From NCBI GenBank assembly GCA_030018435.1, contig JASEEY010000005.1:38-64037 (forward strand): a stretch of DNA of 64,000 nt, in the 5' to 3' direction. This document shows positions 1,761-32,478 of the stretch, one piece after another; the first letter of the stretch is position 1; each line of letters opens with the position of its first letter. A program made the translations under genes and the position numbers. The notes under the pieces were generated by a model. The model did no database searches. It was not told the DNA's origin and worked only from the letters and a program-made list of their open reading frames with translations. This stretch comes from Methanocellales archaeon. GTDB taxonomy: Archaea; Halobacteriota; UBA148; JAUWXC01.

Positions 1761-3147
1761 CCCGGCGTTTGGGATGATACTTTTTGATAAACTCTGGGTC
1801 GATCCTCTTCAACTCGGACTCTGGAAGCATCGATAACAGATTCCAAGCGATTTCAAGCGTTTTCTCGATCGACCTGTCTTCATCGACGGCTTGATTCACA
1901 AACTCCGCCTCAAATCGATCGGCGAATTCCAAATAGGTTCTATCAAGATCGGTTAGTGCCTCCTCTCCTACAACTGCGACCAAGTCGCGCAATCTTCGTC
2001 CTTCAGCGTAGGCGGAATAAAGTTGGTCGTTTACATCGGCGTGATCCTCTCTGGTTCTCCCTTCGCCAATTCCACCCTGCATCAACCGCGAGAGGCATGG
2101 AAGAACATCAACTGGGGGATAGATGCCTTTTCTGTTAAACTCTCTGAATAACACGATTTGTCCTTCTGTAATGTAACCCGTCAGATCAGGAATTGGATGC
2201 GTTATATCATCATCCGGCATCGTCAGCATCGGCATCTGGGTGATCGATCCTTTCTTTCCTTTTATCCTACCGGCTCTTTCGTAAATCGACGCCAGGTCGG
2301 TGTACATGTAACCAGGATACCCTCTTCGTCCTGGAACCTCTCCCCTAGCGGCTGCGATTTCCCGGAGCGCTTCGCAATAATTTGTCAAGTTGGTCAAAAT
2401 GACTAGTATATGCATATCCTTCTCAAATGCAAGGTACTCCGCTGTAGTCAATCCCAATCTAGGAGTTATAATCCTCTCTATAGCAGGATCATCAGCAAGA
2501 TTGAGAAACATCACCGCTCTTTCCAAGGCACCTGTCCTCTCGAAATCCTGAATGAAGAAGTTCGCCTCTTCATGGGTAATGCCCATGGCTACAAACACGA
2601 CCGCAAACTCCTCCTTTTTTCCTAGAACTTTTGCTTGCCTGGCTATTTGTGCTGCCAGTTCATTGTGAGGTAGCCCTGCACCGGAGAATATGGGGAGCTT
2701 CTGACCCCTGACGAGCGTATTCATCCCATCAATGGTCGAAATGCCAGTTTCGATAAAATCTCGTGGAAACTCCCTCGCGTATGGGTTAATCGGAGCACCA
2801 TATATATCCAGCACTTTTTCCGGAATGATTGACGGGCCGCCGTCGATTGGCGTTCCGGTGCCATCGAACACCCTTCCCAGCACCTCTATTGACACTGGAA
2901 TTTTCATGGTCTCGCCGGTGAACCTGACCGATGTCCAATCGGTATCAAGGTCACGTGTGCCCTCAAATACCTGGATGATCGCTTTATCAGTCTGGGCTTC
3001 GAGCACCTGCCCTCTCCTTCTTTCGCCGGAGGGCGTCTCAATCTCTACAACCTCGCCATATGCCACGTCTGAAACTTTCTCCACGACCATTAGTGGTCCG
3101 CTTACCTCTGTTACGGTCGTATATTCCTTGCTTTTTGATACCGCCAT
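1744..3147 (-). CDS. atpB: A-type ATP synthase subunit B (regulatory)
   Basis: 467 aa with typical A/V-type B subunit sequence ([19 protein letters not shown]...). Confidence 0.95.
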
Positions 3148-3150
3148 TGA

Positions 3151-5234: not shown

Positions 5235-6418
5235 ATGCCTTCCTCACATATCACGATATCCTTCATCTTTTCCAACGACAAATGCTCCCGAATTCCATGG
5301 AGAGCTGCCCTGATATTCCTAACTTCATAATCTTTTGCTACTATGAATCTCATTATCGGTCCTACGTCAAAGACTTTCTTTCTAGCAAACTCGAAGACCG
5401 TATGCAATAAGCGTCTATCGAAAATTGCCTCAAATGCATAGATGCTCCCGCTTTTCTCATATTCAGACATTGCCTTCTTGAGAAGCTCTACGTATCCCGT
5501 ATTCTCCAGCGTTGCGACTATTTCTGCTATATCTCTGGACTCTGTAGCTTGGGTGAGCATCCACGCTGGAAGAGTTCCACCCGGCAACAGGTATTTTCGG
5601 ATCGTCTCAGGTTCGAAACCCTCCTTTTTAGCTCTCATGAGCGCTTTTATATTTGTCACATCAACATACGTGTCAACGAACTTGCTTACAGGCGCAACTA
5701 TCGATGCAGGGATTTTAGGTGCGGACTCGCTAAGTCCTTGAAATACGCACCCATCCAATGCTAACTCGAGAGGCAGCACCGACTTCGTCCTCTCGTAATC
5801 GAGGAGGGCGTTTGAGAGCTCTTTTCCATACGGCATATCCGACAATATCTGAACGATTCTGCCCATATCATCCGCTTCTGCCAATTCTCCTATCAGGTCT
5901 GGAGTGATATTTCCCACCGAAATCATTTTTTTCTTAATCCCATCCGGTGAAAGCCCTGCATTTTTACCCTTTATGGCGACCTTCAGCTGCTCTGCCTCGA
6001 ACTTCATCATGTATGCTTCCAAGAAGGGTTTTATGCACTTCGGCACTCTGGTGATGGTGCTTTTATATGTTTTAAAAAGAGCCAGATTTAGCGCCTTTTC
6101 GATCTCATCAGGATCCTCACCGGTCGCATCGAGTTTATAGCTATCCGCAATTCTCGATATGACCTCGGAGACGTTTTTTGATTCTAAGAGTGGGTGTACG
6201 TTATCAGCAAGAACGTAGGGCACACCAATAGCTCTGACCCTTGCGTTAGGATATGCAAAGCGCATGGCATTTACGATTATTTTTGCTTTGGGAGCGATTA
6301 CCTTCACGACGATGACGGCAAAGACCCCTAGCGCTATCGCGTATAACCATTCGATTGACACTGCGCCTAAAAGTTTGTCAAATTGGTTCAATGAATTGAG
6401 TAAATCGCCAAGCATCAT
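5231..6418 (-). CDS. atpC: A-type ATP synthase subunit C
   Basis: 395 aa; operon position and size. Confidence 0.8.
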   Translation of the reverse strand: MMLGDLLNSLNQFDKLLGAVSIEWLYAIALGVFAVIVVKVIAPKAKIIVNAMRFAYPNARVRAIGVPYVLADNVHPLLESKNVSEVISRIADSYKLDATGEDPDEIEKALNLALFKTYKSTITRVPKCIKPFLEAYMMKFEAEQLKVAIKGKNAGLSPDGIKKKMISVGNITPDLIGELAEADDMGRIVQILSDMPYGKELSNALLDYERTKSVLPLELALDGCVFQGLSESAPKIPASIVAPVSKFVDTYVDVTNIKALMRAKKEGFEPETIRKYLLPGGTLPAWMLTQATESRDIAEIVATLENTGYVELLKKAMSEYEKSGSIYAFEAIFDRRLLHTVFEFARKKVFDVGPIMRFIVAKDYEVRNIRAALHGIREHLSLEKMKDIVICEEGI

Positions 6419-7026
6419 TTCTCACCGTATAAAATCCTCGATATTTCATACCGCAACTCGTTCTTTTGCCGTTCTAATCTGGCCTCGAACGTATTGTTCA
6501 CCATGATATCTCCGGATTTTGATTTGATAGCGACACCACCAATGGTATCGATGTCTTTCTTGCCAACGCTGATTTTTGCGCCTTTCTTGGACATGCTTGA
6601 AATGACCTTTTTAACGACACTCTTGTCCTTCTTATTTGACAGGATGATAACATCGTTTCCTACTAACTTCGCTCCATCGGTCATCAAATTTCTTAGAACG
6701 GTTTCGTATTTTTTAGTAGCAGTCAATTTGCTCAGCGCTTCCCTTGCCTCGGTAAAGCACCGGGAGATAACCTGGTCTTTTGCACCTATGACAGTCCGCA
6801 TAGCATCGATTCTCGCCCCGGATTTGATCCTGTTAACCAGTGCATCGATGTCCTTCCTGCCTCTCTCGAGTATTCTGGAGTGCTCCTGCTCTCCCCTCCT
6901 TCTTGCGTCATCTAAAATCTTCTTTGCCTCTTGCATGGCATCTGCTTTGATGCGCTGCATCTCTGCTTTTGCATCGCTCTCGATCTTGGATATAATTTTA
7001 TCTATGCCATCCATCTGATCACTCAT
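6415..7026 (-). CDS. atpE: A-type ATP synthase subunit E
   Basis: 203 aa, charged coiled-coil N-terminus; operon position. Confidence 0.8.
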   Translation of the reverse strand: MSDQMDGIDKIISKIESDAKAEMQRIKADAMQEAKKILDDARRRGEQEHSRILERGRKDIDALVNRIKSGARIDAMRTVIGAKDQVISRCFTEAREALSKLTATKKYETVLRNLMTDGAKLVGNDVIILSNKKDKSVVKKVISSMSKKGAKISVGKKDIDTIGGVAIKSKSGDIMVNNTFEARLERQKNELRYEISRILYGEK

Positions 7027-18480: not shown

Positions 18481-18593
18481 CGCCGCCAACAGGACTCGAA
18501 CCTGTGACAGCCTGGTTTCCGCGCAACTTTGATCAAACTTTCTCAAAGTTTGTGGTTAACAGCCAGGCACTCTACCAACTGAGTTATGGCGGC
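18481..18593 (-). tRNA. tRNA-Asn (anticodon GTT) with an approximately 40-nt intron at the canonical 37/38 position
   Basis: Manual fold: acceptor GCCGCCA/TGGCGGC, D-arm ACTC..GAGT, anticodon stem CCTGG/CCAGG with loop CTGTTAA, T-arm ACAGG TTCGAGT CCTGT. Confidence 0.6.
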
Positions 18594-18979: not shown

Positions 18980-20260
18980 ATGAAAGTTAGGGTCCGGCCC
19001 TCCGTAGTTCGGGGGGACATCTATGCGCCCCCGTCCAAGAGTTACACGCACAGGGCGATAACGATTGCTGCTCTTGGCAAGAAGGCGGAAATTTCGTATC
19101 CACTCCTCTCTAAAGACACGATGGCCACTGTTAGGGCCTGCGAGGCGTTTGGGGCAACGATACATGCGCCCGAGGAAAAAGAGGGCGTTTTGAAGATCGC
19201 CGGCGTTGACGGGCACCCTAAAACGCCGGAGGATGTGATCGATGCCGCGAACTCCGGTACGACGCTCAGGTTTATGACCGCAGTGGGAAGTTTGATGGAT
19301 GGAGCAGTGGTTCTGACTGGAGATGATTCACTGCGGAAACGCCCTAATGGGCCTTTGTTAAAAGCAATTAACGATTTAGGAGCAGTTGCGTTCTCCACCA
19401 AAGATGATGGGACTGCGCCAATCGTGGTCAGGGGCAAGATCAGGGGAGGTGTGACTACCGTTAGCGGGGAGATTAGTTCACAGTTCATCTCTGCGCTGTT
19501 ACTTGCCTGTCCTTTTGCGAGTGAGAACACCATAATAAGAGTGGACGGTGAATTGAAATCCAAACCATATGTGGAGATGACGTTGGATGTATTGGAAAGT
19601 GCTAGTGCCAAGGTAGTTACGGATTTAACCAAATTCGAAATCCCCCATAAGCAGGCGTTTAATCTTGGTTCATACGTCATTCCAGGCGATTTCTCTTCGG
19701 CATCATATTCGCTCGCAGCAGGAGCGATTACCAATTCAAAAGTTGTGGTGAGAAATCTATTTCCATCTAAACAAGGAGATGTTGCCATTGTTTCCATCCT
19801 TCAGCAAATGGGCGCGAATGTGATGTGGAATCAAGACAAAGGCATGGTGACCGTTGATGGAGCAGAGTTGAAGGGCATTAGGATCGATGTAGGTGCCCAT
19901 CCGGACTTGGTTCCAACTCTTGCAGTACTGGGAGCTTGCGCAGAAGGCGTTACACAAATCACCAACGCCGCCCATCTGCGCTACAAGGAGACCGACAGGT
20001 TAAGAGCGATGTCGACGGAGTTAAGAAAGATGGGTGCGAAGATAAAGGAGTTACCAGATGGCTTGGTCATTGAGGGATCGCGCTTGCATGGCGCCAAGTT
20101 GCATGGGTACAACGATCATAGGATTGTGATGGCACTTACTATCGCCGGTTTAGCCGCGAAAGGAGAGACGATCGTCGATGATGCGGAATCTGTGGAGGTA
20201 TCATATCCAGACTTTTTCGATGACTTATTTAGCATGGGAGCGAATATAGGGGTGGAATGA
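18980..20260 (+). CDS. aroA: 3-phosphoshikimate 1-carboxyvinyltransferase (EPSP synthase)
   Basis: 426 aa; LPxSKSxxxR-type N-terminus ([11 protein letters not shown]) and EPSPS family sequence. Confidence 0.9.
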
Positions 20261-21354
20261 TGTCTGGAAATTCATTTGGTCAGGTGTTTAGACTTACGAC
20301 ATGGGGCGAGAGTCATGGTCCCGCAATAGGTGCCGTCGTAGATGGCTGCCCAGCTGGATTGCCCTTAAGTGAGAAAGATGTCCAGGCTGAATTGGATAGG
20401 AGGCGACCTGGGCAGAGCGAGGTTACTACACCTAGGGGAGAGCCAGATGTCGTGGAAATCCTGTCAGGCGTGTTTGAGGGCAAGACGACCGGAACACCAA
20501 TCTCGATGCTGGTCCGGAATAAGGACGTTGAGTCTGGCGTGTACGAAGAGTTGCGGTATACGCCGCGACCTGGGCATGCTGATTTCACATATGAGATGAA
20601 ATACGGTTTTAGGGATTATAGAGGGGGAGGGCGCTCTTCTGCACGAGAGACAGTTGGCAGGGTTGCTGCTGGTGCCATAGCCAAGAAGCTGCTCGGGACG
20701 AAGAACGTGGAAATCTTGGGTCATGTCGTTGAGGTGGGCGGCATCTCGGTCGGCGGTGTTACCATAGACCAAATACGAAAAAATGTGGAAAAGAACCCAG
20801 TCAGGTGTGCTGACGTCAAGATAGCAGAGAAGATGCGCAAGCGCGTAGAGGGGGCAAAATCAGAGGGAGATAGCATCGGCGGTGTTGTTGAAATTTTAGC
20901 GCTTAACGTGCCCCCAGGCGTCGGTGAGCCTGTATTCGACAAGTTAGATGCGGATCTGGCAAAAGCGTTGATGAGCATAGGTGCCGTCAAGGGCATTGAG
21001 ATTGGAGCTGGTTTTAGAGCAGCAAAGATGAAGGGGAGCGAGATGAACGATCCGTTCAGGATTAAGGGCGGCGTTGTGATGACAGGGACGAACAATGCAG
21101 GGGGCATCCTTGGCGGAATATCCAACGGCATGCCCATCACATGCAGAATCGCAGTCAAACCAACATCCTCTATCTCCAAAGCGCAGAAGACCGTGGATTT
21201 GTCGAAGAAGGTTAACACTGAAATACAGATCAAAGGACGCCACGATCCATGCATATGCCCACGAATCGTTCCGGTGGCAGAGGCGATGGTTGCGCTCGTC
21301 CTGGCAGACCACATGATCCGGGGAGGGTTTATTCCCACTGTTTTAAAGTCCTAA
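20257..21354 (+). CDS. aroC: Chorismate synthase
   Basis: 365 aa; GESHG and GRSSARET motifs; ATGA overlap with aroA. Confidence 0.9.
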
Positions 21355-21394: not shown

Positions 21395-23239
21395 ATGATG
21401 AAGAATATGACGATACCAAAGACGATTTGGCGGCTTCTAATTATAGCAATACTCATAGCGATTGTATCTGCTTTGGGGATATCGTTATTAACCGTAAGTG
21501 TTTCTGCGGATGGAGGGATGGGTGGACCCGATTGTGTTCACTGTCATGATATCAAAGGAGGAGATGAGGGGCATAAGGGACATGTGGACGTTTCCGCGAT
21601 GAATCAAACGAATTCAATTCACGTCAATTTAAACAGCGGTGTTAGTACGTCCTTAAATCCTGATAATAAGCGTTGCTGGGCATGTCACGGCAATGGCACT
21701 CAACCCTCTGGACACGGGCACCCATCTAATTACAAGAGCCCTTACATCTGCTTGGATTGCCACATTTCTGGTGGCTCTCAGGTTGAGAAGTATAATGCTC
21801 CAATCGTCTTTGAGCACTACAGGAATGGCATGGACATAAAGGCGGCAACAAATGCATCAACAGACGTATTGGCCTGTATATCCTGTCATCAAAACGTGAA
21901 TGAGATGGTCTTATCAAACTCTGACCCTGATTATGGTCACAACATAACTGATGTAGATAAAGACGGAGTCCAAGGTGGCCCTAACTGTACCTATCACTAT
22001 GGCAGAAAGAGAACTGATCTGCAAACTGGTACTCCTCCCTATACCAACTGTTCATACTGCCATCAGAACGCCTCGACGGCATTTCCCTTTGTCAATGCAG
22101 ACCTCAAGAACCTTGAGAATCACACGCCAAGGATTACGAATCCCAGTTGTGTTGATTCCAGATGTCATGATGTTGGCCGGATACACAATTCAACACTGAA
22201 GATGCCGACGACCGTGGATTATACGCTGTGTACTGACTGTCATGGAGGCAAGAGCAGACATAACGATACTCTGGATTGCACAAAATGTCACGGGAATGCC
22301 ACGAACAAGATTCATCCAATCTTATATCTTGCATCTGACGGTACTTTTTCCACTTCGAACGTTTCGGCAGTGAACTGTATATCATGTCATCAGGAAGGAT
22401 ATATGGGCCCGCAAGTTTCTGATCCACTTCACCACAGCGAAGTAAACACAGGACAGCGCTGGGGCGATTATTGGACAGACGATTTATCCGCATGCACATA
22501 CTGTCATGACGATACAAAGCATGACGCAATAGCATTGGGAAGACCGGCAAATTGGAAAGGAGACAACATCGTTGGCTCATCCGTCAACAACAGCTACTGG
22601 TGTGCAGGCTGTCATTATCAGGGATACCAAAGTGGTGCACACAGCTACGAAAATATGGTTAACACATTCAATGGCTCTGGCTTAAACATCCCGCCAGAAA
22701 TCACCAACGGCACGTATGCACCCAACGTAACAGGATTCTATGAACACGTATGCGCTAACTGGTCAGATGCGCTCTGCAAAGAATGTCATGGCAAGTTTGT
22801 CAGCGGTTATAATGTAACCGAACTCATGCACAACGTTTCAGACGGCAGCTGCGGTAACTGCCACTATGACTTTGCATATATGAATGATGCCCGAAATGCG
22901 CCCACGAAATACGTGAACAGCACGATGTTCAATGCGAGCGTGCATGGGCCATCGTCGGGAATAGGGTGCGTAGACTGCCATACTACCTCAAATCATCCTT
23001 ACCCGGAGTATTACTGGAAGTGGTGCGAGTGCTGCCATGCCGTACAATCTAACCCTGTCGATGATACGGACAGGCACAACGTCACATCTGATGTGCGGAA
23101 CAACATGGTTGACGGTGTTTCAGTCCTCAGCATAATCGACTGTAAGACATGCCACAATGCAACCTCTTACGAAAATGCAAAGACCAATTTTGGATTGTGC
23201 AGATGGTGCCATACATATCCTGATAAAACATATGAGTGA
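21395..23239 (+). CDS. Multiheme c-type cytochrome, about 16 CxxCH plus one CX4CH, N-terminal signal anchor
   Basis: Counted CxxCH: CVHCH, CWACH, CLDCH, CISCH, CSYCH, CTDCH, CTKCH, CISCH, CTYCH, CAGCH, CKECH, CGNCH, CVDCH, CECCH, CKTCH, CRWCH, plus CVDSRCH; hydrophobic N-terminus. Confidence 0.85.
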   Translation: MMKNMTIPKTIWRLLIIAILIAIVSALGISLLTVSVSADGGMGGPDCVHCHDIKGGDEGHKGHVDVSAMNQTNSIHVNLNSGVSTSLNPDNKRCWACHGNGTQPSGHGHPSNYKSPYICLDCHISGGSQVEKYNAPIVFEHYRNGMDIKAATNASTDVLACISCHQNVNEMVLSNSDPDYGHNITDVDKDGVQGGPNCTYHYGRKRTDLQTGTPPYTNCSYCHQNASTAFPFVNADLKNLENHTPRITNPSCVDSRCHDVGRIHNSTLKMPTTVDYTLCTDCHGGKSRHNDTLDCTKCHGNATNKIHPILYLASDGTFSTSNVSAVNCISCHQEGYMGPQVSDPLHHSEVNTGQRWGDYWTDDLSACTYCHDDTKHDAIALGRPANWKGDNIVGSSVNNSYWCAGCHYQGYQSGAHSYENMVNTFNGSGLNIPPEITNGTYAPNVTGFYEHVCANWSDALCKECHGKFVSGYNVTELMHNVSDGSCGNCHYDFAYMNDARNAPTKYVNSTMFNASVHGPSSGIGCVDCHTTSNHPYPEYYWKWCECCHAVQSNPVDDTDRHNVTSDVRNNMVDGVSVLSIIDCKTCHNATSYENAKTNFGLCRWCHTYPDKTYE

Positions 23240-23245
23240 TGAAAT

Positions 23246-23668
23246 ATGCTGTCAAGTAGAAGAAAAGCGGTCATAATCGGCATTGCGATGGTGATGGTTG
23301 CCACATCACTGACAGCATATGCCCTATTTTTCGGCGGTCACACGCTCTACACTAGGAAGGATTCTCCAGATTACGGCTCTGCAGAGTTCTGCGTTAAATG
23401 CCATCCGGATGTCGTCGCCACAGCGATGGTCGGCGCGCATCAAAACGCAGGATGCATCTGCCATGGCTATCGTCCAGAAGAGGGCATCAATTTAGCGCAC
23501 AACCTGACCAAGCAGATATACTGCACGAACTGCCATTCGAACTATGACGCAGAAGGAAACATCACCATTCATGAAGGGGTGAGCGGATTAAATCAGTCAG
23601 GGCATTATATTACGAACTATACCGCTACGCTTTACAATAATTCACAACAATTCTTCAGCGGTAGTTAA
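23246..23668 (+). CDS. Small membrane-anchored c-type cytochrome (2-3 heme sites)
   Basis: N-terminal TM; CVKCH, CTNCH and an atypical CICH. Confidence 0.6.
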   Translation: MLSSRRKAVIIGIAMVMVATSLTAYALFFGGHTLYTRKDSPDYGSAEFCVKCHPDVVATAMVGAHQNAGCICHGYRPEEGINLAHNLTKQIYCTNCHSNYDAEGNITIHEGVSGLNQSGHYITNYTATLYNNSQQFFSGS

Positions 23669-23670
23669 CT

Positions 23671-24171
23671 ATGGTCAGAAGAGCGTTAATTTTGTTCACG
23701 GTATTAATTTTACTGGAAGCGTTGGTTCCTATAACGAGCGCCACCGAGATTCAGTGGCATGGATATGAAGAGGGTATGGCGCTTGCCAACTCCAACAATA
23801 TGTCAGTTATGATCGATTTCTATACGGAGTGGTGTGGGTATTGTAGAAAACTGGACGACGAAGTGTACGTGGATGACGAGATCATCGCGTTATCTGAAAA
23901 TTTTGTGAATATCAAGGTCGATTGTAATGCCCGTCCTGATCTACGGCAGAAATATGCTGTAACGGGCTACCCGACGATCGTGTTTTTAAATTCCAATGGA
24001 GACGAGGTTCATAGAGTGTATGGATATGTACCAGCAGATGAGTTCAAAACAGACATGCAAATCGCCTTAAACCTAAAAGATGCAACACCAACACCCACGC
24101 CTGGATTTGAAGCAGTACTTGGCGTAGCGGCGTTGATTAGTTTGGCGTTCAGGAGAAAATCGAATGACTGA
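23671..24171 (+). CDS. Secreted thioredoxin-fold thiol:disulfide oxidoreductase with PGF-CTERM sorting signal
   Basis: Signal peptide; WCGYC active site; Thr/Pro linker then PGF + TM + RRK tail (TPTPTPGFEAVLGVAALISLAFRRK). Confidence 0.75.
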   Translation: MVRRALILFTVLILLEALVPITSATEIQWHGYEEGMALANSNNMSVMIDFYTEWCGYCRKLDDEVYVDDEIIALSENFVNIKVDCNARPDLRQKYAVTGYPTIVFLNSNGDEVHRVYGYVPADEFKTDMQIALNLKDATPTPTPGFEAVLGVAALISLAFRRKSND

Positions 24172-24816
24172 TATATCTCCTTTAATCGCATTTTCTGCCG
24201 GAATCGTGAGCGTACTATCACCGTGCGTGCTCCCTCTTATTCCTGCGGTGATGACATACTCTACAGGAAAAGGACGGCTCAGGCCGTTGGCGATAGTGAT
24301 TGGACTATCGATGGCCTTCACCTCCATGGGCATAGTAGCCTCAGCCTTGGTATGGCATTCATCAGTTATGCACAATACCTGCGAATGGCTGCTGCTCTCA
24401 TAATCGTTTTTCTTGGACTTTACATGTTGTCCGAGTCACTAGAACGGAAATTGTCGATGCTAAAAAGCAGGATACTACCGAGTTTGAATCTTCCTACATC
24501 ATCTTCTAGCGTTTTAGGAGGGTTTATACTCGGACTATCGCTGGGCATCGCATGGGTGCCCTGCATAGGTCCGATACTCGGCACCATCTTAGTATTGGTA
24601 ACAATAAAAGCCAGCCTGTTCTATGGCGCGATGATGCTATTCATTTACTCACTTGGGCTAGGTATTCCGATACTTGTAATCGGCTATGTCACAAAGTCAT
24701 CTATGCAACTCGGCAAATTTGCTCGATACGGTGCAACCATCAAACGTGTTACCGGGGCAGTGCTGATCGTCGTTGGGTTATATATGATGTTACATTTTCT
24801 ACCCATAACGTTTTAA
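24164..24816 (+). pseudogene. ccdA: Cytochrome c biogenesis protein CcdA (DsbD-like), interrupted by a 1-nt frameshift near 24345-24356
   Basis: The N-terminal half (SPCVLPLIPAV) is ORF 24164-24403 and the C-terminal half (WVPCIGPILG) is ORF 24223-24816 in another frame. The junction at ttgg(g)tatggc suggests loss of one G. Confidence 0.7.
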
Positions 24817-25050
24817 GTTTCGACCGTTTTACTCTCGTCCTCTCCTTAAGACGTGGCTGATGTACTCTCTGCCCCTGCTCATTAATTCAACTAATAATTC
24901 AGCGGCATTCTTAACCAATCTGATGATGTACTCTATTAGGTACTTGGTCAATTGAAAAGGATCTCTAAGCGATTAGATAAGCCCACCATGTCAAAACAAG
25001 GGTTATCTTTTTATGTATGCAATTTATTAAAGTATACACAGTGAAAAGAT

Positions 25051-25356
25051 ATGCCTGCTACCGTATCTGTGCGATTGGACGATGAAATGATAAAGGATAT
25101 CGAGCTATTAAAGGAAGAGTCACAAGTGGACAGGTCTGAGATGGTGAGGAAACTATTGGACAGGGCATTAAAGCAAGCCAAGATCGAAAAAGCCATAGAA
25201 CTGCTCAGAAAGCATAAAATCTCAATTGGAAAAGCCTCTGAGTTAGCCGGGATGACTTTGTATGAAATGATCGAGCTGTGCAAGACGCGTGACATACATA
25301 TCGGGTACTCTATAGGGGACTTAAAAAAGGACTTGGATCAGTTTCCGATCAGATAA
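25051..25356 (+). CDS. UPF0175-family antitoxin (RHH-like N-terminus + UPF0175 domain)
   Basis: Sequence pattern ..IGKASELAGMTLYEMIELCKTRDI. Confidence 0.55.
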   Translation: MPATVSVRLDDEMIKDIELLKEESQVDRSEMVRKLLDRALKQAKIEKAIELLRKHKISIGKASELAGMTLYEMIELCKTRDIHIGYSIGDLKKDLDQFPIR

Positions 25357-25366
25357 GGTGTCTTAG

Positions 25367-25876
25367 TTGAGAGCAGTGTTGAATTCTACTCCGCTCATCT
25401 ATCTAGCCAAGATAAATCACTTAGACTTGTTAGGAAAAGTTTATGATCAAATCTACATCCCCACTCCTGTTTATGAAGAAACTGTCCAGAGGGGTCTGGA
25501 AAAGAAATTTTTGGATGCTGATATCATCAAGAATGCCGTTGACAGGGGAACCATTGAAGTTAGAGAGTTGACCTCGGAACAAAAGGCTGAAGCGAGGAGA
25601 CTAATCCAATTTGCAAATATAGGCGGAGGAGAGGCTGAAGCAATAGTGCTGGCAAAACATCTTAACATCGAATTGATGATAGATGATGTGGTTGCCCAGG
25701 GCGTTGCCAGAACTTTAGGATTAGATGCACACTGGACAACCAGTTTTATAATCAGACTGGTCAGCAAAAAGTTAATTTCTCGAAAAGAGGCCAGAAAAAT
25801 GATTGAAGATTTGGTGAGCAGTGGATACAGGATAAGTGAAGAAGTGCTCATCGAAATACTAAAAGTGTTGAGTTAA
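25367..25876 (+). CDS. DUF3368/COG2405 PIN-like toxin
   Basis: 169 aa; partner position downstream of the UPF0175 antitoxin; paralog of 28006-28503. Confidence 0.55.
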   Translation: MRAVLNSTPLIYLAKINHLDLLGKVYDQIYIPTPVYEETVQRGLEKKFLDADIIKNAVDRGTIEVRELTSEQKAEARRLIQFANIGGGEAEAIVLAKHLNIELMIDDVVAQGVARTLGLDAHWTTSFIIRLVSKKLISRKEARKMIEDLVSSGYRISEEVLIEILKVLS

Positions 25877-26199
25877 ATGAACTCCTCATCATAAACCAAG
25901 GGTAATACTAACCCAGGACTGAACTTAGCCCATCTATTTGCTCTTTTGTCCATTTTCTAGAGTTAGATTTTCAAAGACAAAGTTAGCCTTCTGTAGAGGT
26001 TCTTCTGCATCCTTTCTTCCCTATTTCTCTTATGTTTCTCTTATATCTGGGGGGGAGGGGATTCAGATAGGTAGATCGGGCTTACTAGATGGGGTATTTT
26101 GGTTTTGTTCCTTGAGCATTTCCGCTTAGGTTAGCAGCACCCGAAGACCTCTATAAATATTTAAATAGTCACTTAACGATGTGAAACATTGGTGATGGC

Positions 26200-26388
26200 A
26201 TGGAGAATCGCATTGAGATTAACCCAAGGGTTATGGCAGGGAAACCTATGATAAAGGGTACGAGGATTCCCATTTACCTTATTTTAGATTTGCTTGCAGC
26301 AGGGTATAAGAGCAAGGATATCGTAGCTGCAATAGAATATGCCTCAGGCATTCTCAAAAGGGAAGAGGTTGTAGAAGTAAAGGCATGA
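26200..26388 (+). CDS. DUF433-family small protein (orphan antitoxin-like)
   Basis: INPRVMAGKPMIKGTRIPIYLILDLLAAGYKSKDIVAAIEYAS matches the DUF433 pattern. Confidence 0.5.
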   Translation: MENRIEINPRVMAGKPMIKGTRIPIYLILDLLAAGYKSKDIVAAIEYASGILKREEVVEVKA

Positions 26389-26475
26389 GTTATCAATAAC
26401 TGACTCCCTTCAGTTAACACCGCTCCCTATTCCGCCTATAATGTTTTAAGTCATGAAGTAGCAGTTTGAGTTAGC

Positions 26476-27336
26476 ATGACTTTAAGAGGATGCGCATCAG
26501 CCTGCGGCGCAGGCACAATCATAAACGCCATCGCAACGTGGAAAGGTTCAGCCTTTGCCATTGATCTGCGAACCACCGCCGAGGTCGAGTTAGGCGAGGA
26601 TATGAAGCGCATTCAAGGAGAGATTAAAGGCGGTGGCGATGCTACGCTGATAGAGCGCTGCGTGGAGTTGGTGCTGCAAAAGTTCGGTTATGCAGGCGGT
26701 GCGCACGTTAGAACGAGCAGCGAGATACCCATCGCCAGAGGGCTAAAGAGCAGTTCTGCAGCGGCAAATGCAACAGTCCTAGCAACGCTGAGTGCGCTGG
26801 ACAAGAAAATGGAGGCTTTGGAAGCAGTACGCTTGGGAGTTCATGCCGCTCTCGATGTAGGAGTGACGGTAACCGGCGCCTTCGACGATGCTGCAGCCTC
26901 TTTTTTAGGTGGCATCGTGGTCACCAATAACAAGACCATGCAACTCGTGAAGAGGGTTGAAAGAGACGAGGATGTGCTGATTCTGGTGCCCGAGGAGAAG
27001 GTATTCACCGCGGAGACAAACGTGGAAAAGATGAAGTTAATCGCCCCCTGGGTGGAGCTGGCATACGATTTAGCATTAGAAGACAGATTCGAAAAGGCGA
27101 TGACGTTAAATGGTATTTTGTATTGCGTCGCTCTGGAATTTGACCCATGCATCATCATCAAGGCATTAGAAGCGGGTGCAAGCGGTGCCAGTCTATCAGG
27201 AACGGGTCCAGCGTTTTGCGCTCTTGTGAAAAAGGATAGAATAAGCGCTGTGAAAGAAGCATGGAGCGACTTCAACGGAAAAATCATTAGGACGAAGATC
27301 AATAATGAAGGTGCAAGGGTGGAAAGATGTCGTTAA
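26476..27336 (+). CDS. aroK: Shikimate kinase, archaeal GHMP-kinase type
   Basis: 286 aa with GHMP kinase motifs; archaeal-type shikimate kinase. Confidence 0.8.
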   Translation: MTLRGCASACGAGTIINAIATWKGSAFAIDLRTTAEVELGEDMKRIQGEIKGGGDATLIERCVELVLQKFGYAGGAHVRTSSEIPIARGLKSSSAAANATVLATLSALDKKMEALEAVRLGVHAALDVGVTVTGAFDDAAASFLGGIVVTNNKTMQLVKRVERDEDVLILVPEEKVFTAETNVEKMKLIAPWVELAYDLALEDRFEKAMTLNGILYCVALEFDPCIIIKALEAGASGASLSGTGPAFCALVKKDRISAVKEAWSDFNGKIIRTKINNEGARVERCR

Positions 27337-27614
27337 AGGATGTTCGGGAGAAAATCCAGAATATCGATGACCAGATCGTAGAACTCATAGCTCAACGTAC
27401 TAATCTGGCGGAAGATGTGCTGGAGGAAAAGAAAAAGGAGGGCATAGGCATCGACGATGAGGAGCAGAGGGAGATCGTGCTCAACCGGATGGTGGAAGCG
27501 GCAACAGAGCGCAATCTTGACGCGGGTGCAGTAAAACAAATCTATGAAATACTCATAGAGATGAACGTTGAACGTCAGCGCGAGCTGAGCGGAAAAGGAA
27601 AGTTGCAGCCATAG
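27327..27614 (+). CDS. Chorismate mutase (AroQ class)
   Basis: 95 aa; LKDVREKIQNIDDQIVELIAQR is a typical AroQ helix 1. Confidence 0.8.
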   Translation: MSLKDVREKIQNIDDQIVELIAQRTNLAEDVLEEKKKEGIGIDDEEQREIVLNRMVEAATERNLDAGAVKQIYEILIEMNVERQRELSGKGKLQP

Positions 27615-27680
27615 CTATCGTATTTTTCCGCCAATCCCCTCCAATAAACTAAGCGACATGTTTAAGTGTAATGAAAAGTA

Positions 27681-28022
27681 ATGATTTGTAATGTGATGAA
27701 GATGGGCAACGTCCAGGTAAGAATATCTAATGAGATGTTAGGCGAGATAGACAGGCTGAGCAGGATGCTCGAAAGCTCAAGATCAGAAGTGATCAGAAAA
27801 GCCCTTGATGATGGCATAAGTCGCATAAAAATGGAGGCGACTCTGAGAGATTACATAGATAACAAGATAACGTTGTGCAAAGCAGCTGTACTGGCTGGAA
27901 CGTCTGTCATGGAGTTTGCAGAGTACGCTGCAGAAAAGGGCATCCCATTCATGAGATATGGGGCAGAGGAGGCTGAAGAGGATCTGTTAAGGTTGAGGAA
28001 ACGGCATGAAAGTGCTGATTGA
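27681..28022 (+). CDS. UPF0175-family antitoxin (second copy)
   Basis: RISNEMLGEIDRLSRM.. RHH-like then ..LCKAAVLAGTSVMEFAEYAAEKGIP. Confidence 0.55.
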   Translation: MICNVMKMGNVQVRISNEMLGEIDRLSRMLESSRSEVIRKALDDGISRIKMEATLRDYIDNKITLCKAAVLAGTSVMEFAEYAAEKGIPFMRYGAEEAEEDLLRLRKRHESAD

Positions 28023-28503
28023 CGCTTCTTCACTGATAGCGTTAACAAAGACAGGATCGCTTGACCTCATCAAGGACGTCTTCGGCAGAGTTTTTATAAC
28101 CAAAGAGATCGAGAAAGAGATCACATCTGGCACTTTAGCTGACGTTGCAATCCTGAAGGGGAAGATCAAAGACTGGATTGAGGTCATCGAATCTCCCAGT
28201 TCCAAAGAATATTACACGAAACTAAAAGGACTGGATGAGGGAGAGTGCAGCATCCTCGGATATGCAAAGGAAAATAAAGACGTTTTACTCATATTAGATG
28301 AGGTAGAGGGCAGAGCAGTCGCAGAAGCCGAAGGTTTTACTCACACCGGAACTCTTGGATTGATCGTCTATGCCTGTGAAAAACGCATAATATCAAAATC
28401 CAGGGCGATGGGAATAATCAAGAAGCTATCCAGAAGTGAGTTCAGAATGACCACTGAGCTATATGACTGGGCCTTGACCAAGATAGAGGCTGTCAAGAAG
28501 TGA
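28006..28503 (+). CDS. DUF3368/COG2405 PIN-like toxin (second copy)
   Basis: MKVLIDASSLIALTKTGSLDLI.. PIN-like N-terminus; overlaps the antitoxin stop. Confidence 0.55.
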   Translation: MKVLIDASSLIALTKTGSLDLIKDVFGRVFITKEIEKEITSGTLADVAILKGKIKDWIEVIESPSSKEYYTKLKGLDEGECSILGYAKENKDVLLILDEVEGRAVAEAEGFTHTGTLGLIVYACEKRIISKSRAMGIIKKLSRSEFRMTTELYDWALTKIEAVKK

Positions 28504-28531
28504 TGTGGACCGCCTGAAACAAACGTATTGA

Positions 28532-29836
28532 TTATCGTATTTTTCCGGCAATCCCCTTCAACAATTCTTCGACTGCGCCCTGCACATCTTTTGGATTTTT
28601 ATCACCAAGAATGGCGACCCTGAGCGTGATGCTGAGGTGTCCCTCCCTGAGTTTGAATGTGTCTATCACTTCTGCCGATGTGACGCCATCCACGCCCTTG
28701 ACAACTTGGGCGATGATGTCTGGCTTGACGTTTTCAGCTAAAACGACGGATATGTCTCGCCTGTGATGCACCAGATTCTCAACCTTCCACTGTCGCAGCT
28801 CATCCGGACTGAGCAGCTTAACGTTCTCGATTTTCAGCTTGGTGCATTTCCCGTTTCTTTCCAGCACGAGGGTTTGAGGTGTGACCTTCCTGATAACGCC
28901 AATGTGCACAACACCGGAGTAGATGTGCTGCAGCGCCCTCTCAGTCCCAATTGAGTGCATCAGCTCCTCTATCTCGGCGATCTTTGCGTTCACGAGTTTG
29001 TCTGATCGCCTGAGTGCTGCCTCGGTATCGCCAAAGTGAGCCGCGGCCTTTCTCATCGAGCGGACAAACTCATCTACGTCATCCTTTTTGATGCCTTTCG
29101 AAAGCTCCTTACACTGGGCTATGAACGTGCTGCGCACCTTCTCCACCTCTGGATTGGTCTGAATCGTCGCATACAGGTGTGGATTCTGCGCCAGGATTCT
29201 GCCCACAAAATCGATCATGATCTCGTAGACAGGACTCATGAATCTCCGCGATTTGCCTATGTCGAAATCCAATGCGTCCAGGGTTGCACCCGTCGAGATG
29301 TATGCAAAGTGCGTCAGCCCTTGGACGACTGCCATTATTCTATCATGCTCCTCTGCAGAGAGTATCTCCACGTGTGCCCCGTTATCCTCAAAGAGGGTCC
29401 TTATCTTTGGCAGCCATCTCTCGTCCCGCCCTTCTACGGGCACCAGGATCACGGTCTGTCCTTTTATATCCGGCACCATGGGACCGAACATCGGATGCGT
29501 TCCAATTAACTCGACACCCTTTGGCGCCTTTTTCATTGCCTCCATAGGGCCTTTCTTGACCGATGTCACGTCCGTGAGCAGGCTGCCTGGCCTCATCTTT
29601 GGCGCTATCCTGGATATCACCTCCTCTGTGACATCGATTGGAACTGATATCAGCACGATATCAAAGTCTCCTGCATTTTGGGCATCGCCCAGGGCAACCC
29701 CCAGTTCGTTCGCTATTTCAGATGTGTGAGGGTCGATGTCCGCAATGGCGATGTCCATGCCCTGCCCTTTTAGAAATCGTGCGAACCACTGCCCCATCTC
29801 ACCGGCGCCGCCTACGATTAGCGTTTTAGCGCGCAT
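28532..29836 (-). CDS. tyrA: Prephenate dehydrogenase with C-terminal ACT-like domain
   Basis: 434 aa; Rossmann GxGxxG at the N-terminus; TyrA family. Confidence 0.85.
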   Translation of the reverse strand: MRAKTLIVGGAGEMGQWFARFLKGQGMDIAIADIDPHTSEIANELGVALGDAQNAGDFDIVLISVPIDVTEEVISRIAPKMRPGSLLTDVTSVKKGPMEAMKKAPKGVELIGTHPMFGPMVPDIKGQTVILVPVEGRDERWLPKIRTLFEDNGAHVEILSAEEHDRIMAVVQGLTHFAYISTGATLDALDFDIGKSRRFMSPVYEIMIDFVGRILAQNPHLYATIQTNPEVEKVRSTFIAQCKELSKGIKKDDVDEFVRSMRKAAAHFGDTEAALRRSDKLVNAKIAEIEELMHSIGTERALQHIYSGVVHIGVIRKVTPQTLVLERNGKCTKLKIENVKLLSPDELRQWKVENLVHHRRDISVVLAENVKPDIIAQVVKGVDGVTSAEVIDTFKLREGHLSITLRVAILGDKNPKDVQGAVEELLKGIAGKIR

Positions 29837-30639
29837 CTCACAGCATCCTCCATTACCTTTACTGGTGCTTCTCGTCCAGTCCAGATCCTAAACGACTCTG
29901 CGCCCTGGTGTACAAGCATGTTGACCCCGTCTATCGTCAAAGCGCCGGCCTTCCTTGCTTCTTTCAGCAGACATGTCTCGATGGGGTTGTACACGATGTC
30001 GAATACGACCAGATCAGGGTGCATCATGTCAGCCGTGACAAGCGTTTTATCCACATCAGGGTGCATTCCCACCGAAGTCGAGTTGATCAGTATGTCGACC
30101 TTCTTCACCAGTGTGGCAAGGTCGCCCATATCGGTACCTATTGCATCGCCTACACCCCTCACGTCCTGTGCGAGTTTGACCGCTCGCGGCGCCGTTCTGT
30201 TGACGATGATGAGACCGGCGCCGTCATGCGCGAGTTGAAATGCTATCGCCCGCGCAGCGCCACCAGCACCCAAGAGCAGGACCCGCTTATCCTTCACGCT
30301 GATGTTGTGCTTTTTCAGTGCGCGTTTGGCGCCGATGCCGTCGGTATTGTAACCAATGATGCCATCCTTAAAATCGATGGTATTGATTGCGCCGATTTCC
30401 TCGGCTATAGGGTCGGCGTTTACAATTTCTAAAGCCCTTTCTTTGAGTGGTATGGTTACGTTCAGCCCGCCAAAGCCGAGTGCTTTCGCTCCCAGGATGG
30501 CATCCCTTACATCCTCAAGAGTGACCCTAAAAGCATAGTATACACAATCCATCCCCAAATGCCTAAATGCCGCATTATGCATGACCGGCGACAGGCTATG
30601 CTCTATAGGGTCTCCGATCACTCCATATACAGTTTTCAT
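29818..30639 (-). CDS. aroE: Shikimate dehydrogenase
   Basis: 273 aa; VIGDPIEHSLSP N-terminus and GAGGAARA NADP site. Confidence 0.85.
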   Translation of the reverse strand: MKTVYGVIGDPIEHSLSPVMHNAAFRHLGMDCVYYAFRVTLEDVRDAILGAKALGFGGLNVTIPLKERALEIVNADPIAEEIGAINTIDFKDGIIGYNTDGIGAKRALKKHNISVKDKRVLLLGAGGAARAIAFQLAHDGAGLIIVNRTAPRAVKLAQDVRGVGDAIGTDMGDLATLVKKVDILINSTSVGMHPDVDKTLVTADMMHPDLVVFDIVYNPIETCLLKEARKAGALTIDGVNMLVHQGAESFRIWTGREAPVKVMEDAVRCALKR

Positions 30640-30645
30640 CTCAAC

Positions 30646-31329
30646 TTACCGCCTCAGTAATACGTCCAGTGTATTCCGCAGTTCGCTCACAGAAAGCTGC
30701 CCGGGCGCTTTGGCCCTGCCGGCATGACCGTATGTCAACGCAGAGCCATACAGCGGTGCAATAATTCTCGAGTGAACGCCGAGGGCGCCCATGGCAATCG
30801 TGCACAAGGGCTTTTGCGCCAGGAGCGTGACCTCCAGCAACTTGAGTACGTCGCCGAGCGAGTTTGCCATGACCGCTAATTTCGGTATATCGCCTGCGCC
30901 ACGTGCTTCTTCTAACATGCGCATCATCTGCTCCTTGGGCGGCGTTTTGTCAAAATCGTGATAGGAGATAATCGATGGCATCCCTTGCTTTTTTGCCCCC
31001 TCTGTCACGACATTTCTTTCCGCAGCTCTCAGCTCAATGTCCACAGCATCAGAGTGCTCCATCGCAGATAACAGCATCGAAATTCTCTCCTCTTCTGAAC
31101 CGGTAAACGAGCCGCCCTCTTTTGACCAACGATTGGTTGCGATAACTGGCAACGGTGAGGATAGATGAACATCCTTGAAAAACTGGTCCACATTCTCCGT
31201 CCTATCGAGCAGGTCTATCCGTATTTCCAGCAGATCAGCGCCTGCTCTTTCTGCGTTGATAACTTCATCGATGGTACTGACCACTCCAACTATTCTGGGC
31301 ACCGAAAGATCGACATCGCCTATCTTCAT
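30646..31329 (-). CDS. aroD: 3-dehydroquinate dehydratase, type I
   Basis: 227 aa; type I DHQase family. Confidence 0.8.
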   Translation of the reverse strand: MKIGDVDLSVPRIVGVVSTIDEVINAERAGADLLEIRIDLLDRTENVDQFFKDVHLSSPLPVIATNRWSKEGGSFTGSEEERISMLLSAMEHSDAVDIELRAAERNVVTEGAKKQGMPSIISYHDFDKTPPKEQMMRMLEEARGAGDIPKLAVMANSLGDVLKLLEVTLLAQKPLCTIAMGALGVHSRIIAPLYGSALTYGHAGRAKAPGQLSVSELRNTLDVLLRR

Positions 31330-31338
31330 AATCGCTCC

Positions 31339-32478
31339 CTACTTCTCGATGATCGTCTCTTCTACCTTCATGCCAAAATGTCTGCCGCCTTCTTCGTAGT
31401 GCACCAGTACCTCATCGCCTGGCTTGAGCGCTGTGACCGCTTTTGGCGTTCCATCCTTGGACACGAGTTTGATTGTCTCTGCATTCTGAAGGATCGTCTT
31501 TATCTTATCTCCTTTTATTTCGGCTTCGACGAGCATGAGCGGTCTTCGCTCGATCTTTACTCGCCCTATTATTGCCTTCTTTGAGGTGCCCTTGGCACTC
31601 ACCACCAACACCTCATCCCCCGCCCCTAATTCGGAAAGGTACTTAGTTTTATCACCCACCTTGACGTACGCATGAACCGCCCCAGCATTCACCCTGAAGG
31701 GGCGGGATGCTACATACGGGCTCTCTTCCGTCTCAGCGTGTACGAGGAATAACCCATTGGATTGTGAGCCAACCAGCATGCCCTCTCCTTTGGATAACAG
31801 CGAGCACGTATCCACACAGACCCTGTCGCCCATTCCGACTGATTTCACCAAGGTGATTTTTGCCGAGGCTAGAGTTATGCCCTTGGCCCCTATGCCTTCG
31901 ATGATGCTCGCCACCTTTTTTACCTCTGGCGCATCAGCATCTAAAAGCACTCCATCTGCACCGTGCTCCAGCGTCTCGAGGGCGACTTTGGCCTCTGCGG
32001 CACTTCCAACTCCTGCGATGATGTCCACATCGTGCTCTTGGAGTGTTGCAATTAGATTCTCCAAGGGGATGACTTTCCAGTCGGTACCTATGACTATTAA
32101 ATGGTCGCAGATTTTTCCCAGCGCAGCCGCAAACTCTTCGTACCTCTTTCCTTTGATTACAACGTACGCTGCGGTCTCCTTCCCATCTATAGACAAACAC
32201 TTGAGCCTGTTCAAATCCGGGGAATCCTTAAGATCGTCTGGCAGCACCCTTGTTCCATCGCCCTCGCTGTTCTTTCCTATCACGGCGATGTCCGCATCGC
32301 TTTTCTCGTCTTTGAGAGGCGCTGCTACCTTGATGCTGCCCAGCGTTCTCACCTTTTCCACATCTTCCTCGTTCACGAGCACGACATCAGCACCAGATTC
32401 CAGGGCAGTCGTAATCCTTGACTTTCTGTCTTCCCACGCCCCTTCATCGGCTTTGACCCACAGGGATTTCCCCTTCAT
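31339..32478 (-). CDS. aroB': 3-dehydroquinate synthase II (archaeal)
   Basis: 379 aa; archaeal DHQS-II family; adjacent to the ADH synthase gene. Confidence 0.8.

Follow-up and report, generated by a model that had tools for sequence, protein, structure and literature searches.

Gene pairs encoding a COG2886 (UPF0175) protein and a PIN-domain protein were predicted to be toxin-antitoxin systems by Makarova et al. (2009; PMC2701414), who counted DUF433 (COG2442) proteins among the predicted components as well. Matelska et al. (2017; PMC5499597), in a survey of PIN domains, placed the COG2405/DUF3368 family in the VapC group as "potential toxins" and gave two to five conserved residues for it; SSO1118 (PDB entry 2mdt) is listed there as the solved COG2405 member, and UPF0175 appears only as a family encoded adjacent to COG2405. 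With a prediction dating from 2009 and a place in the PIN-domain classification since 2017, such modules are in themselves routine. As described below, two of these pairs stand on either side of the shikimate kinase (aroK) and chorismate mutase (CM) genes in a 64,000-nucleotide stretch of the genome of a Methanocellales archaeon (assembly GCA_030018435.1, contig JASEEY010000005.1, positions 38 to 64,037; hereafter the window). This arrangement probably results from two independent insertions of self-contained cassettes of about 0.9 kb, carrying old and divergent COG2886/COG2405 members, into a pre-existing aro cluster.

Every gene of the two pairs, and every gene between them, was found in the list of open reading frames (ORFs) at the coordinates reported in an earlier note on this DNA. 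Pair 1 consists of the antitoxin gene A1 (25051-25356, plus strand; 101 residues) and the toxin gene T1 (25367-25876, plus strand; 169 residues), and pair 2 consists of A2 (27696-28022, plus strand) and T2 (28006-28503, plus strand; 165 residues). In both pairs, the antitoxin gene comes first and is co-directional with the toxin gene; A1 and T1 are separated by 10 nt, and A2 and T2 overlap by 17 nt. The longest ORF of A2 begins at 27681, but the starts called in other assemblies make 27696 or 27702 more likely. T1 starts with TTG after a GGTG ribosome-binding motif. The exact T1 protein is not in the protein database (best match, 91%) and the exact T2 protein is; the TTG-started T1 gene was probably left uncalled in the deposited annotation.

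Each antitoxin has an N-terminal ribbon-helix-helix (RHH) domain and a C-terminal UPF0175 domain. A1 (RHH_1, 28.2 bits; UPF0175, 48.4 bits) and A2 (RHH_1, 31.8 bits; UPF0175, 39.9 bits) exceed the Pfam gathering scores for both models (27.9 bits for UPF0175, PF03683). The toxins also match a PIN model of Pfam slightly below its gathering score, no NCBIfam model was found for T1 or T2, and the precomputed database annotation gives PF11848 for the identical T2 protein and all the homologues. Since a sequence search of solved structures with T1 and T2 gave no meaningful matches, a fold search was needed. AlphaFold2 models built on homologue alignments had a pLDDT (predicted local distance difference test) score of 97.1 for T1 and 93.8 for T2, and nearly all of the top Foldseek matches of both in the PDB were PIN/VapC proteins, including 2mdt. 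Both toxins are thus predicted to have a PIN fold. These data support the assignment of both pairs to the known, predicted COG2886 (UPF0175)/COG2405 (DUF3368) type II toxin-antitoxin family. ORF coordinates, Pfam and the fold search agree that two UPF0175/DUF3368 pairs of identical architecture flank aroK-CM, as the earlier note had stated.

The two pairs resemble the described COG2886/COG2405 pairs in having the antitoxin gene first with an overlapping or abutting gene for a PIN-fold protein of about 165 residues, in the UPF0175 scores and predicted toxin folds given above, and in belonging to a mainly archaeal family of patchy distribution. Unlike those pairs, their antitoxins have the additional N-terminal RHH domain, which stands in for roughly the first 15 positions of the UPF0175 model. 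The same RHH-UPF0175 architecture was found in the partners of all T1-like and T2-like homologues inspected; a second pair of locus L089 (loci of related sequences are given L numbers) has UPF0175 alone.

The vapBC genes of Sulfolobales described by You et al. (2011; PMC3119797, who cite Guo et al. 2011) provide another comparison. There, many PIN-type pairs are described as clustering in variable regions, where they are gained and lost, and paralogues within one genome are below about 30% identical, with near-identical pairs in other genomes. The window pairs show the same pattern of low identity within the genome and high identity between genomes. A1 and A2 share 31% protein identity (E 3e-12), and T1 and T2 share 20% by BLASTP (E 6e-7) or 26% in a multiple alignment (about 20-27% overall). 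The toxin homologues are about 85-91% identical in sister genomes, followed by those in distant archaea, such as Hydrothermarchaeota and Thermoplasmata, at 50-62%. T1 and T2 retrieve separate sets of homologues, and their closest relatives belong to different subfamilies. The present locus differs from the Sulfolobales case in that the pairs lie inside a conserved biosynthetic cluster instead of a large variable region, and in that the insertion borders, empty sites and flanking repeats are resolved to the single base.

When pair 1 and pair 2 were aligned at the DNA level, the identity was at the level of chance, and no repeat common to both pairs was found. The "clearly related sequences" of the earlier note are therefore related at the protein level, and there weakly, but not at the DNA level. 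The alignments revealed very divergent pairs, the state which that note had associated with ancient, unrelated acquisitions; the sequences indicate that the pairs are old, distantly related paralogues rather than products of a recent duplication. The note had proposed that a duplication captured aroK-CM, that the pairs form direct repeats by which aroK-CM could be excised, or that the pairs stabilize a neighbouring island of cytochrome genes. Gene order, orientation and domain architecture are indeed alike in the two pairs, which bracket aroK-CM. Nevertheless, the low protein identity and the lack of DNA similarity rule out a recent duplication as well as homologous recombination between the pairs, and no repeat above chance length was found between them. 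Moreover, each pair has orthologues in relatives without the other pair, at about 85-97% identity (92-97% for the antitoxins and 85-91% for the toxins). The model as a whole is next to impossible, being refuted by the DNA alignment together with the occupancy states in relatives. An exact-protein look-up of CM returned the source contig only and thus no population variants of the same strain. As a caution, two toxin-antitoxin pairs of the same architecture need not mean a duplication or a composite-transposon-like structure.

Is the aroK-CM segment a resident of this locus or cargo of the pairs? Relatives were found by a tyrA scan of species-representative genomes, by exact-protein look-ups and by tblastn and blastn searches. 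Among them, the two pairs show all four possible occupancy states: neither present, pair 1 only, pair 2 only, or both. Both pairs are present in the window, where ccdA lies upstream of pair 1, in L003 (JAUWQV010000001.1), which has no cytochrome genes nearby, and in L126 (JGI 3300029811), which lacks DUF433. L005 (CP061209.1) has pair 1 but not pair 2 and again has no cytochrome genes nearby. L082/L083 (JGI) have pair 2 but not pair 1, and their trx-ccdA genes directly abut aroK. L006 (JAJOKI010000088.1) has neither pair, and dtxR-feoAB lies between aroC and aroK.

The cluster has the order aroC ... aroK-CM, which is convergent with tyrA-aroE-aroD and the dehydroquinate synthase gene. Its right side is syntenic throughout, with tyrA, aroE, aroD, dehydroquinate synthase, a DeoC-type aldolase and trp genes. 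aroK-CM stands beside tyrA-aroE-aroD without one or both of the pairs, and L006 keeps the aroK-CM synteny with neither of them. Given this synteny and the occupancy states, aroK-CM are resident genes of a conserved aro cluster and not cargo, and the cytochrome genes and pair 1 are not linked. The proposed stabilization of the cytochrome island likewise fails, since the cytochrome genes and pair 1 occur independently: the trx-ccdA genes of L082 abut aroK with no pair 1 in between, no cytochrome genes lie within 10 kb in L003 and L005, which do have pair 1, and pair 1 of L125 (see below) sits in a different toxin-antitoxin island.

In the window, aroK (26476-27336, plus strand; archaeal GHMP-type; TIGR01920, 288.8 bits) overlaps the CM gene (27327-27614, plus strand; CM_2 match), and their convergent neighbour is tyrA (prephenate dehydrogenase; 28532-29836, minus strand; NF006411, 583.6 bits). 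The chorismate synthase gene aroC (20257-21354) lies to the left of pair 1. The interval between aroC and aroK is a variable cargo slot within the aro cluster. In the window, a multihaem cytochrome c, a small cytochrome, a thioredoxin (PGF-CTERM) and DsbD-CcdA are encoded between chorismate synthase and aroK (21395-24816), and the slot of L006 (7282-9662) holds dtxR-feoA-feoB. L082/L083 share the thioredoxin/CcdA end of the slot (the L082 sequence starts at window position 23306). Both the cytochrome cluster and dtxR-feoAB are absent within 10 kb in L003 and L005. The fetched flanks of these two loci contained no aroC, and further toxin-antitoxin modules lay beyond pair 1.

The insertion of pair 2 left a second copy of the last 33 nt or so of tyrA, and the tyrA gene stayed intact. 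The cassette of about 885 nt (27648-28531, plus strand) consists of a promoter/operator region, A2, T2 and a 28-nt tail. To its left, directly after the CM stop codon, there is a non-functional copy of the last 10 tyrA codons (27616-27647, minus strand), and to its right lies the functional 3' end of tyrA (28533-28564, minus strand). These copies of 32-33 nt are identical at 29 of 32 positions, and A2 and T2 are the only genes between them. In L005 and L006, the site is empty; the tyrA end is single-copy, and the stop codons of CM and tyrA abut. The tyrA-end remnant was also found in L003, L082/L083, L090 and L126. Just upstream of the A2 start, three GTAATG direct repeats with 10-nt spacing form a candidate RHH operator (27668-27693, plus strand). 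This triple-repeat site occurs once in the window and in none of 100 shuffles, and it is conserved in L003, L082, L090 and L126.

A further insertion, the third at the CM-tyrA junction, was found in L003 (12245-12478, minus strand) and L126 (5349-5582). It is a 77-residue ORF of the YgiT/MqsA zinc-ribbon type, which lacks the helix-turn-helix (HTH) half and a partner gene and lies between the CM stop codon and the tyrA-end remnant. No flanking repeat was found for it in either locus.

Pair 1 entered at another junction, between ccdA and aroK. The core cassette (24988-25930, plus strand), which is the unit common to other genomic contexts, consists of a promoter region, A1, T1 and a tail of about 54 nt. 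Its left border is also at 24988 in L126, at 24992 in L003 and at 24964 in L005; the sequence shared with L126 stops a little earlier on the right, at 25897. A 17-nt repeat bounds the larger insertion. The left copy, CCCATAACGTTTTAAGT (24802-24818, plus strand), is the 3' end of the DsbD/CcdA-like gene ccdA (24223-24816, plus strand) including its stop codon, and the right copy, CCTATAATGTTTTAAGT (26435-26451, plus strand), forms a TATA-like motif that lies 25-41 nt before the aroK ATG. The copies are identical at 15 of 17 positions, and the motif is single-copy in L082, where ccdA is 26 nt from aroK. In the alignment with L082, the window blocks 23306-24819 and 26435-31998 overlap by 18 nt in L082. 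Thus, 24820-26434 (about 1.6 kb, pair 1 plus DUF433) is an insertion/deletion difference with a copy of the 17-nt repeat at either end. The left copy is separated from the cassette by a 168-nt filler (24820-24987), for which no homologue was found in any fetched locus.

The DUF433 ORF (26200-26388, plus strand; 62 residues) encodes a degenerate, COG2442-type predicted antitoxin. It has no partner gene and is the orphan that the earlier note had taken it to be. Compared with the 81-residue orthologue of L003, the window ORF lacks 36 nt (12 codons, IKEYPGLKEKDI) in frame; the missing segment lay between two KDI-coding repeats, and part of the domain is lost with it, the Pfam match covering only model positions 1-40 of 56. 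This looks like a microhomology deletion. DUF433 is partly to mostly deleted in L005 and wholly absent in L126, and the gene is decaying.

A third pair exists in L003 (14804-15476, plus strand; about 865 nt) convergent to T1. It consists of an RHH protein and a DUF3368-like protein, its antitoxin having the RHH domain only, without UPF0175, and it takes the place of about 60-100 nt that the window has at 25900-25962. Neither a clean insertion nor a flanking repeat was found for this pair.

How old are the insertions? In a neighbour-joining tree of 3.9 kb of aro genes, L003 and L005 group together and then with L082/L083; this group is sister to the window and L002, with L006 and L004 outside. 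L003, in which pair 2 is present, and L005, in which it is absent, are 5.4% apart over these 3.9 kb. At four-fold sites, the divergence of A2 plus T2 is 0.12-0.15, compared with 0.29-0.36 in six flanking genes (p = 1.7e-5, 3e-6 and 2.6e-3 for three genome pairs). The corresponding values for pair 1 are 0.20-0.24, compared with 0.36 in the flanks (p = 0.005 and 0.03). In a sliding-window comparison, the elevated identity between lineages is restricted to the pair 2 cassette (about 27676-28515). Within one genome, both copies of the tyrA end share lineage-specific bases (for example, CTC in L082 and GGGG in the window).

The pair 1 cassette was also found at a different site in a sibling assembly, GCA_030019435.1 (L125, 5622-6567; 90.7% identical over 946 nt). 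It is part of a toxin-antitoxin island near ftsZ and is flanked there by direct repeats of about 115 nt, which include the 3' end of a convergent PIN gene. L127 has the pair 1 cassette in yet another arrangement. Furthermore, copies of a related cassette of about 870 nt, with 92-95% identity, lie in four or more unrelated contexts. Their borders are sharp, the left one about 50-80 nt before the start codon and the right one about 22 nt past the stop codon. Taken together, the low divergence of the cassettes, their sharp borders, the shared lineage-specific bases and the different placement in L125 and L127 suggest that exchange or re-insertion of the cassettes postdates the species split.

A purely vertical history, in which each pair was inserted once in the ancestor of the clade, pair 2 of L005 and pair 1 of L082/L083 were lost by precise deletion between the repeats, and the low synonymous divergence reflects constraint or gene conversion, seems fairly unlikely. 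It would account for the presence of pair 2 and the same tyrA remnant in all three sub-lineages with the absence in L005 nested inside, and deletion between the repeats would give exactly the observed junctions. On the other hand, the four-fold-site divergence of the pair 2 cassette is less than half of that of the flanks, with a sharp step at the cassette borders, and T2 combines an ordinary protein divergence with a low synonymous divergence, the opposite of what strong constraint predicts. The lineage-specific bases shared by the two tyrA-end copies and the second locus of the pair 1 cassette in L125 also speak against it. The four occupancy states, the base-exact empty sites and the cassettes younger than their flanks make the mobility of toxin-antitoxin genes directly readable; on chromosomes, such mobility has long been assumed and rarely documented. 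The locus also illustrates that such pairs can occupy an essential biosynthetic cluster without disrupting its genes, since the end of the adjacent gene was duplicated in each insertion.

I analyzed whether flanking repeats are a feature of the family. For 37 loci having family pairs and usable flanks (about 27 independent contexts), the 720 nt preceding the antitoxin gene were compared with the 740 nt following the toxin gene, and the best ungapped direct repeat was scored. As controls, 397 random positions in archaeal loci were scored with equal geometry, giving a median of 10 and a 99th percentile of 14. A score of 16 or more was obtained in 6 of 27 cassette contexts versus 2 of 397 controls (Fisher p about 1e-6). 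These six are L089 (score 37), where a perfect 37-nt repeat lies inside the 3' end of an epimerase gene; L125 (36); L119 (26); L099 (25); pair 2 of the window (23); and L113 (16), where it is part of a repeat of about 50 nt. The L099 repeat is a diverged duplicate of a neighbouring RHH gene; since the locus has two diverged copies of that gene and a small inversion, it was rejected as a clean target duplication. The repeat lengths vary (17, 29, 33, 37, about 50 and about 115 nt), and the sequences differ between cases. In L089 (904-1026 and 2048-2110), a UPF0175/DUF3368 pair is inserted 27 nt before the stop codon of the epimerase gene. The epimerase thereby gained a new 28-residue C-terminal tail, and the original end (…FTHKEGKIYK*) persists in the second copy of the repeat. 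These counts are a statistical hint that flanking duplications are common around such cassettes. The flanking-repeat pattern, if general, would indicate a specific route by which the cassettes move.

Terminal inverted repeats were not found at the cassette ends, and no integrase or transposase ORF was found inside any repeat-bounded segment. An insertion sequence or a miniature inverted-repeat transposable element (MITE) was therefore rejected, as there are no inverted repeats, no target duplication of fixed length and no transposase ORF. The insertion sites of the window, L089, L099, L113 and L119 had no RNA gene on or close to them in Rfam and tRNA scans, and no relatives of the T2 family were found in viral contigs.

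Elements integrating into the 3' ends of genes or tRNA genes are similar to pair 2 in that the repeats are the 3' end of the target gene, the target remains intact and the empty site is precise; they differ in that the insert in the window is only 0.9 kb in length, has no integrase and has variable repeats. Small non-autonomous elements could then be supposed, with an integrase encoded elsewhere recombining an att core made of the 33-nt tyrA 3' end. Direct repeats of a gene 3' end that flank the insert and restore the gene are the classic att signature, the geometry is alike in L089 and L125 with the toxin end beside an intact convergent gene, and the same site in several lineages holds a cassette younger than its flanks. 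I consider such site-specific integration quite unlikely, however, since integrase and transposase ORFs were not found in the repeat-bounded segments, the length and sequence of the repeats change from case to case, the junction motif of L125 has no hairpin potential, and the search of viral contigs gave no relative of the toxin.

Integron gene cassettes can carry toxin-antitoxin genes, for example in Vibrio superintegrons. The island of L125 is like integron cassettes in that small units of a promoter plus toxin-antitoxin genes are arrayed between recurring short sequences. Consecutive toxin-antitoxin modules of this 7-kb island are separated by copies of one recurrent sequence, about 60-115 nt long (core CCAACGATCAACTTAGCC ... 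GTCATTTTWAGGCWTTAAACGTTTTCTGA; 1119-1136, 2177-2250, 3104-3148, 5491-5606 and 6524-6640). Weaker copies of the recurrent sequence were found at 25887-25962 of the window and downstream of T1 in L005; the recurring junction motif itself is absent from the window. The recurrent sequence could stem from repeated duplication of a target, or it could be a regulatory region common to the modules or a small repeat element. An attC/integron nature of the motif was rejected, as it has no hairpin potential on either strand (z-scores of -1.3 to +1.4 compared with shuffled sequences). In addition to the lack of an attC-like hairpin, no IntI gene was found nearby, and the cassettes of the window differ from integron cassettes in being single insertions in a housekeeping cluster.

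Other arrays were found in L118 (3500-4850), L119 (3512-4113) and L120 (3500-6471), which differ from one another downstream of one cassette by the insertion of extra modules (HicA-HicB and AbrB-PIN). Recurring GC-rich stretches of 300-400 nt, which contain spurious ORFs only and have no Rfam match, separate these modules.

The two independent insertions are best explained as follows. Each cassette, having its own promoter followed by the antitoxin gene and the toxin gene, entered at a different intergenic junction, pair 2 exactly where the CM and tyrA stop codons abut in relatives and pair 1 plus DUF433 between ccdA and aroK, at the 17-nt ccdA-end/aroK-promoter repeat. Judging from the protein families, the operon would be transcribed from its own promoter and repressed by the RHH domain of the antitoxin, for pair 2 probably via the three GTAATG repeats. 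The UPF0175 part of the antitoxin would neutralize the PIN-fold RNase toxin, and loss of the labile antitoxin would free the RNase, a step that is doubtful for T1. The pairs may thereby behave as selfish addiction modules or stress modules, and their low mutual identity would prevent cross-neutralization. The short flanking repeats would allow precise loss and re-entry, probably via a circular or recombinational intermediate and host recombination, with no recombinase encoded by the cassette.

Several observations weigh against this explanation of the locus. The comparison genomes are all metagenome-assembled, and the synonymous-site counts of the cassettes are small (83-99 sites). Much of the data would also be compatible with a single old insertion that was followed by precise deletions and a degree of gene conversion. 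The repeat of pair 1 is short (17 nt), and its motif is also found upstream of aroK in L003 and L005, both of which lack a nearby ccdA; because of this, the repeat may reflect recombination with a donor already carrying pair 1 upstream of aroK, and not a target duplication. As for the identity of the proteins, the PIN/DUF3368 assignment of the downstream proteins in the earlier note was borne out for the PIN fold by structure prediction, but the DUF3368 scores (T1, 25.2 bits; T2, 21.3 bits) are slightly under the gathering score of PF11848 (27.3 bits). The COG2405/UPF0175 pairs are toxin-antitoxins by prediction only, and an experimental test of the family was not found in the literature. In the T2 subfamily, D6, E38, G79-E80 and D98 are invariant or nearly so. 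In T1 and most of its subfamily, by contrast, Asn replaces the first catalytic Asp of the PIN domain (N6 in T1, motif NSTPLIYLAK), a further difference from the described COG2886/COG2405 pairs, while E38, E89 and D106 are conserved. Judging from these residues, T1 may be inactive as a nuclease.

The Asn substitution raises another reading, in which the genes are not toxin-antitoxins and encode a DNA-binding regulator and a PIN-fold host protein for RNA processing or nucleic-acid binding, with T1 perhaps catalytically inactive. The fact that the published toxin-antitoxin assignments are predictions is also in its favour. I regard a host function as very unlikely; the pairs are patchily present and absent among close relatives, are found within arrays of MazE-PIN, HEPN-MNT and HicAB modules, and have spread horizontally to distant archaea including Hydrothermarchaeota and Thermoplasmata, and the gene overlap and small size are those of selfish toxin-antitoxin modules.

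Beyond the two insertions in the window, a broader conjecture can be made, though I would give it little weight. UPF0175/DUF3368 cassettes, and perhaps other small archaeal toxin-antitoxin cassettes, might be discrete mobile units of about 0.9 kb that have a defined way into and out of chromosomes but encode no recombinase themselves. Insertion would often be into the final few dozen bases of a convergent gene, with duplication of 17-40 nt or more of the target; the same site would be reoccupied in diverging lineages, and arrays would form with the modules separated by target copies. One of the two cassette proteins, either the PIN-fold nuclease or the RHH/HTH DNA binder, could have a role in the reaction.

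Elsewhere in the window, a 113-nt Rfam tRNA match without an ARAGORN counterpart was found at 18481-18593 (minus strand). It is probably an intron-containing archaeal tRNA.

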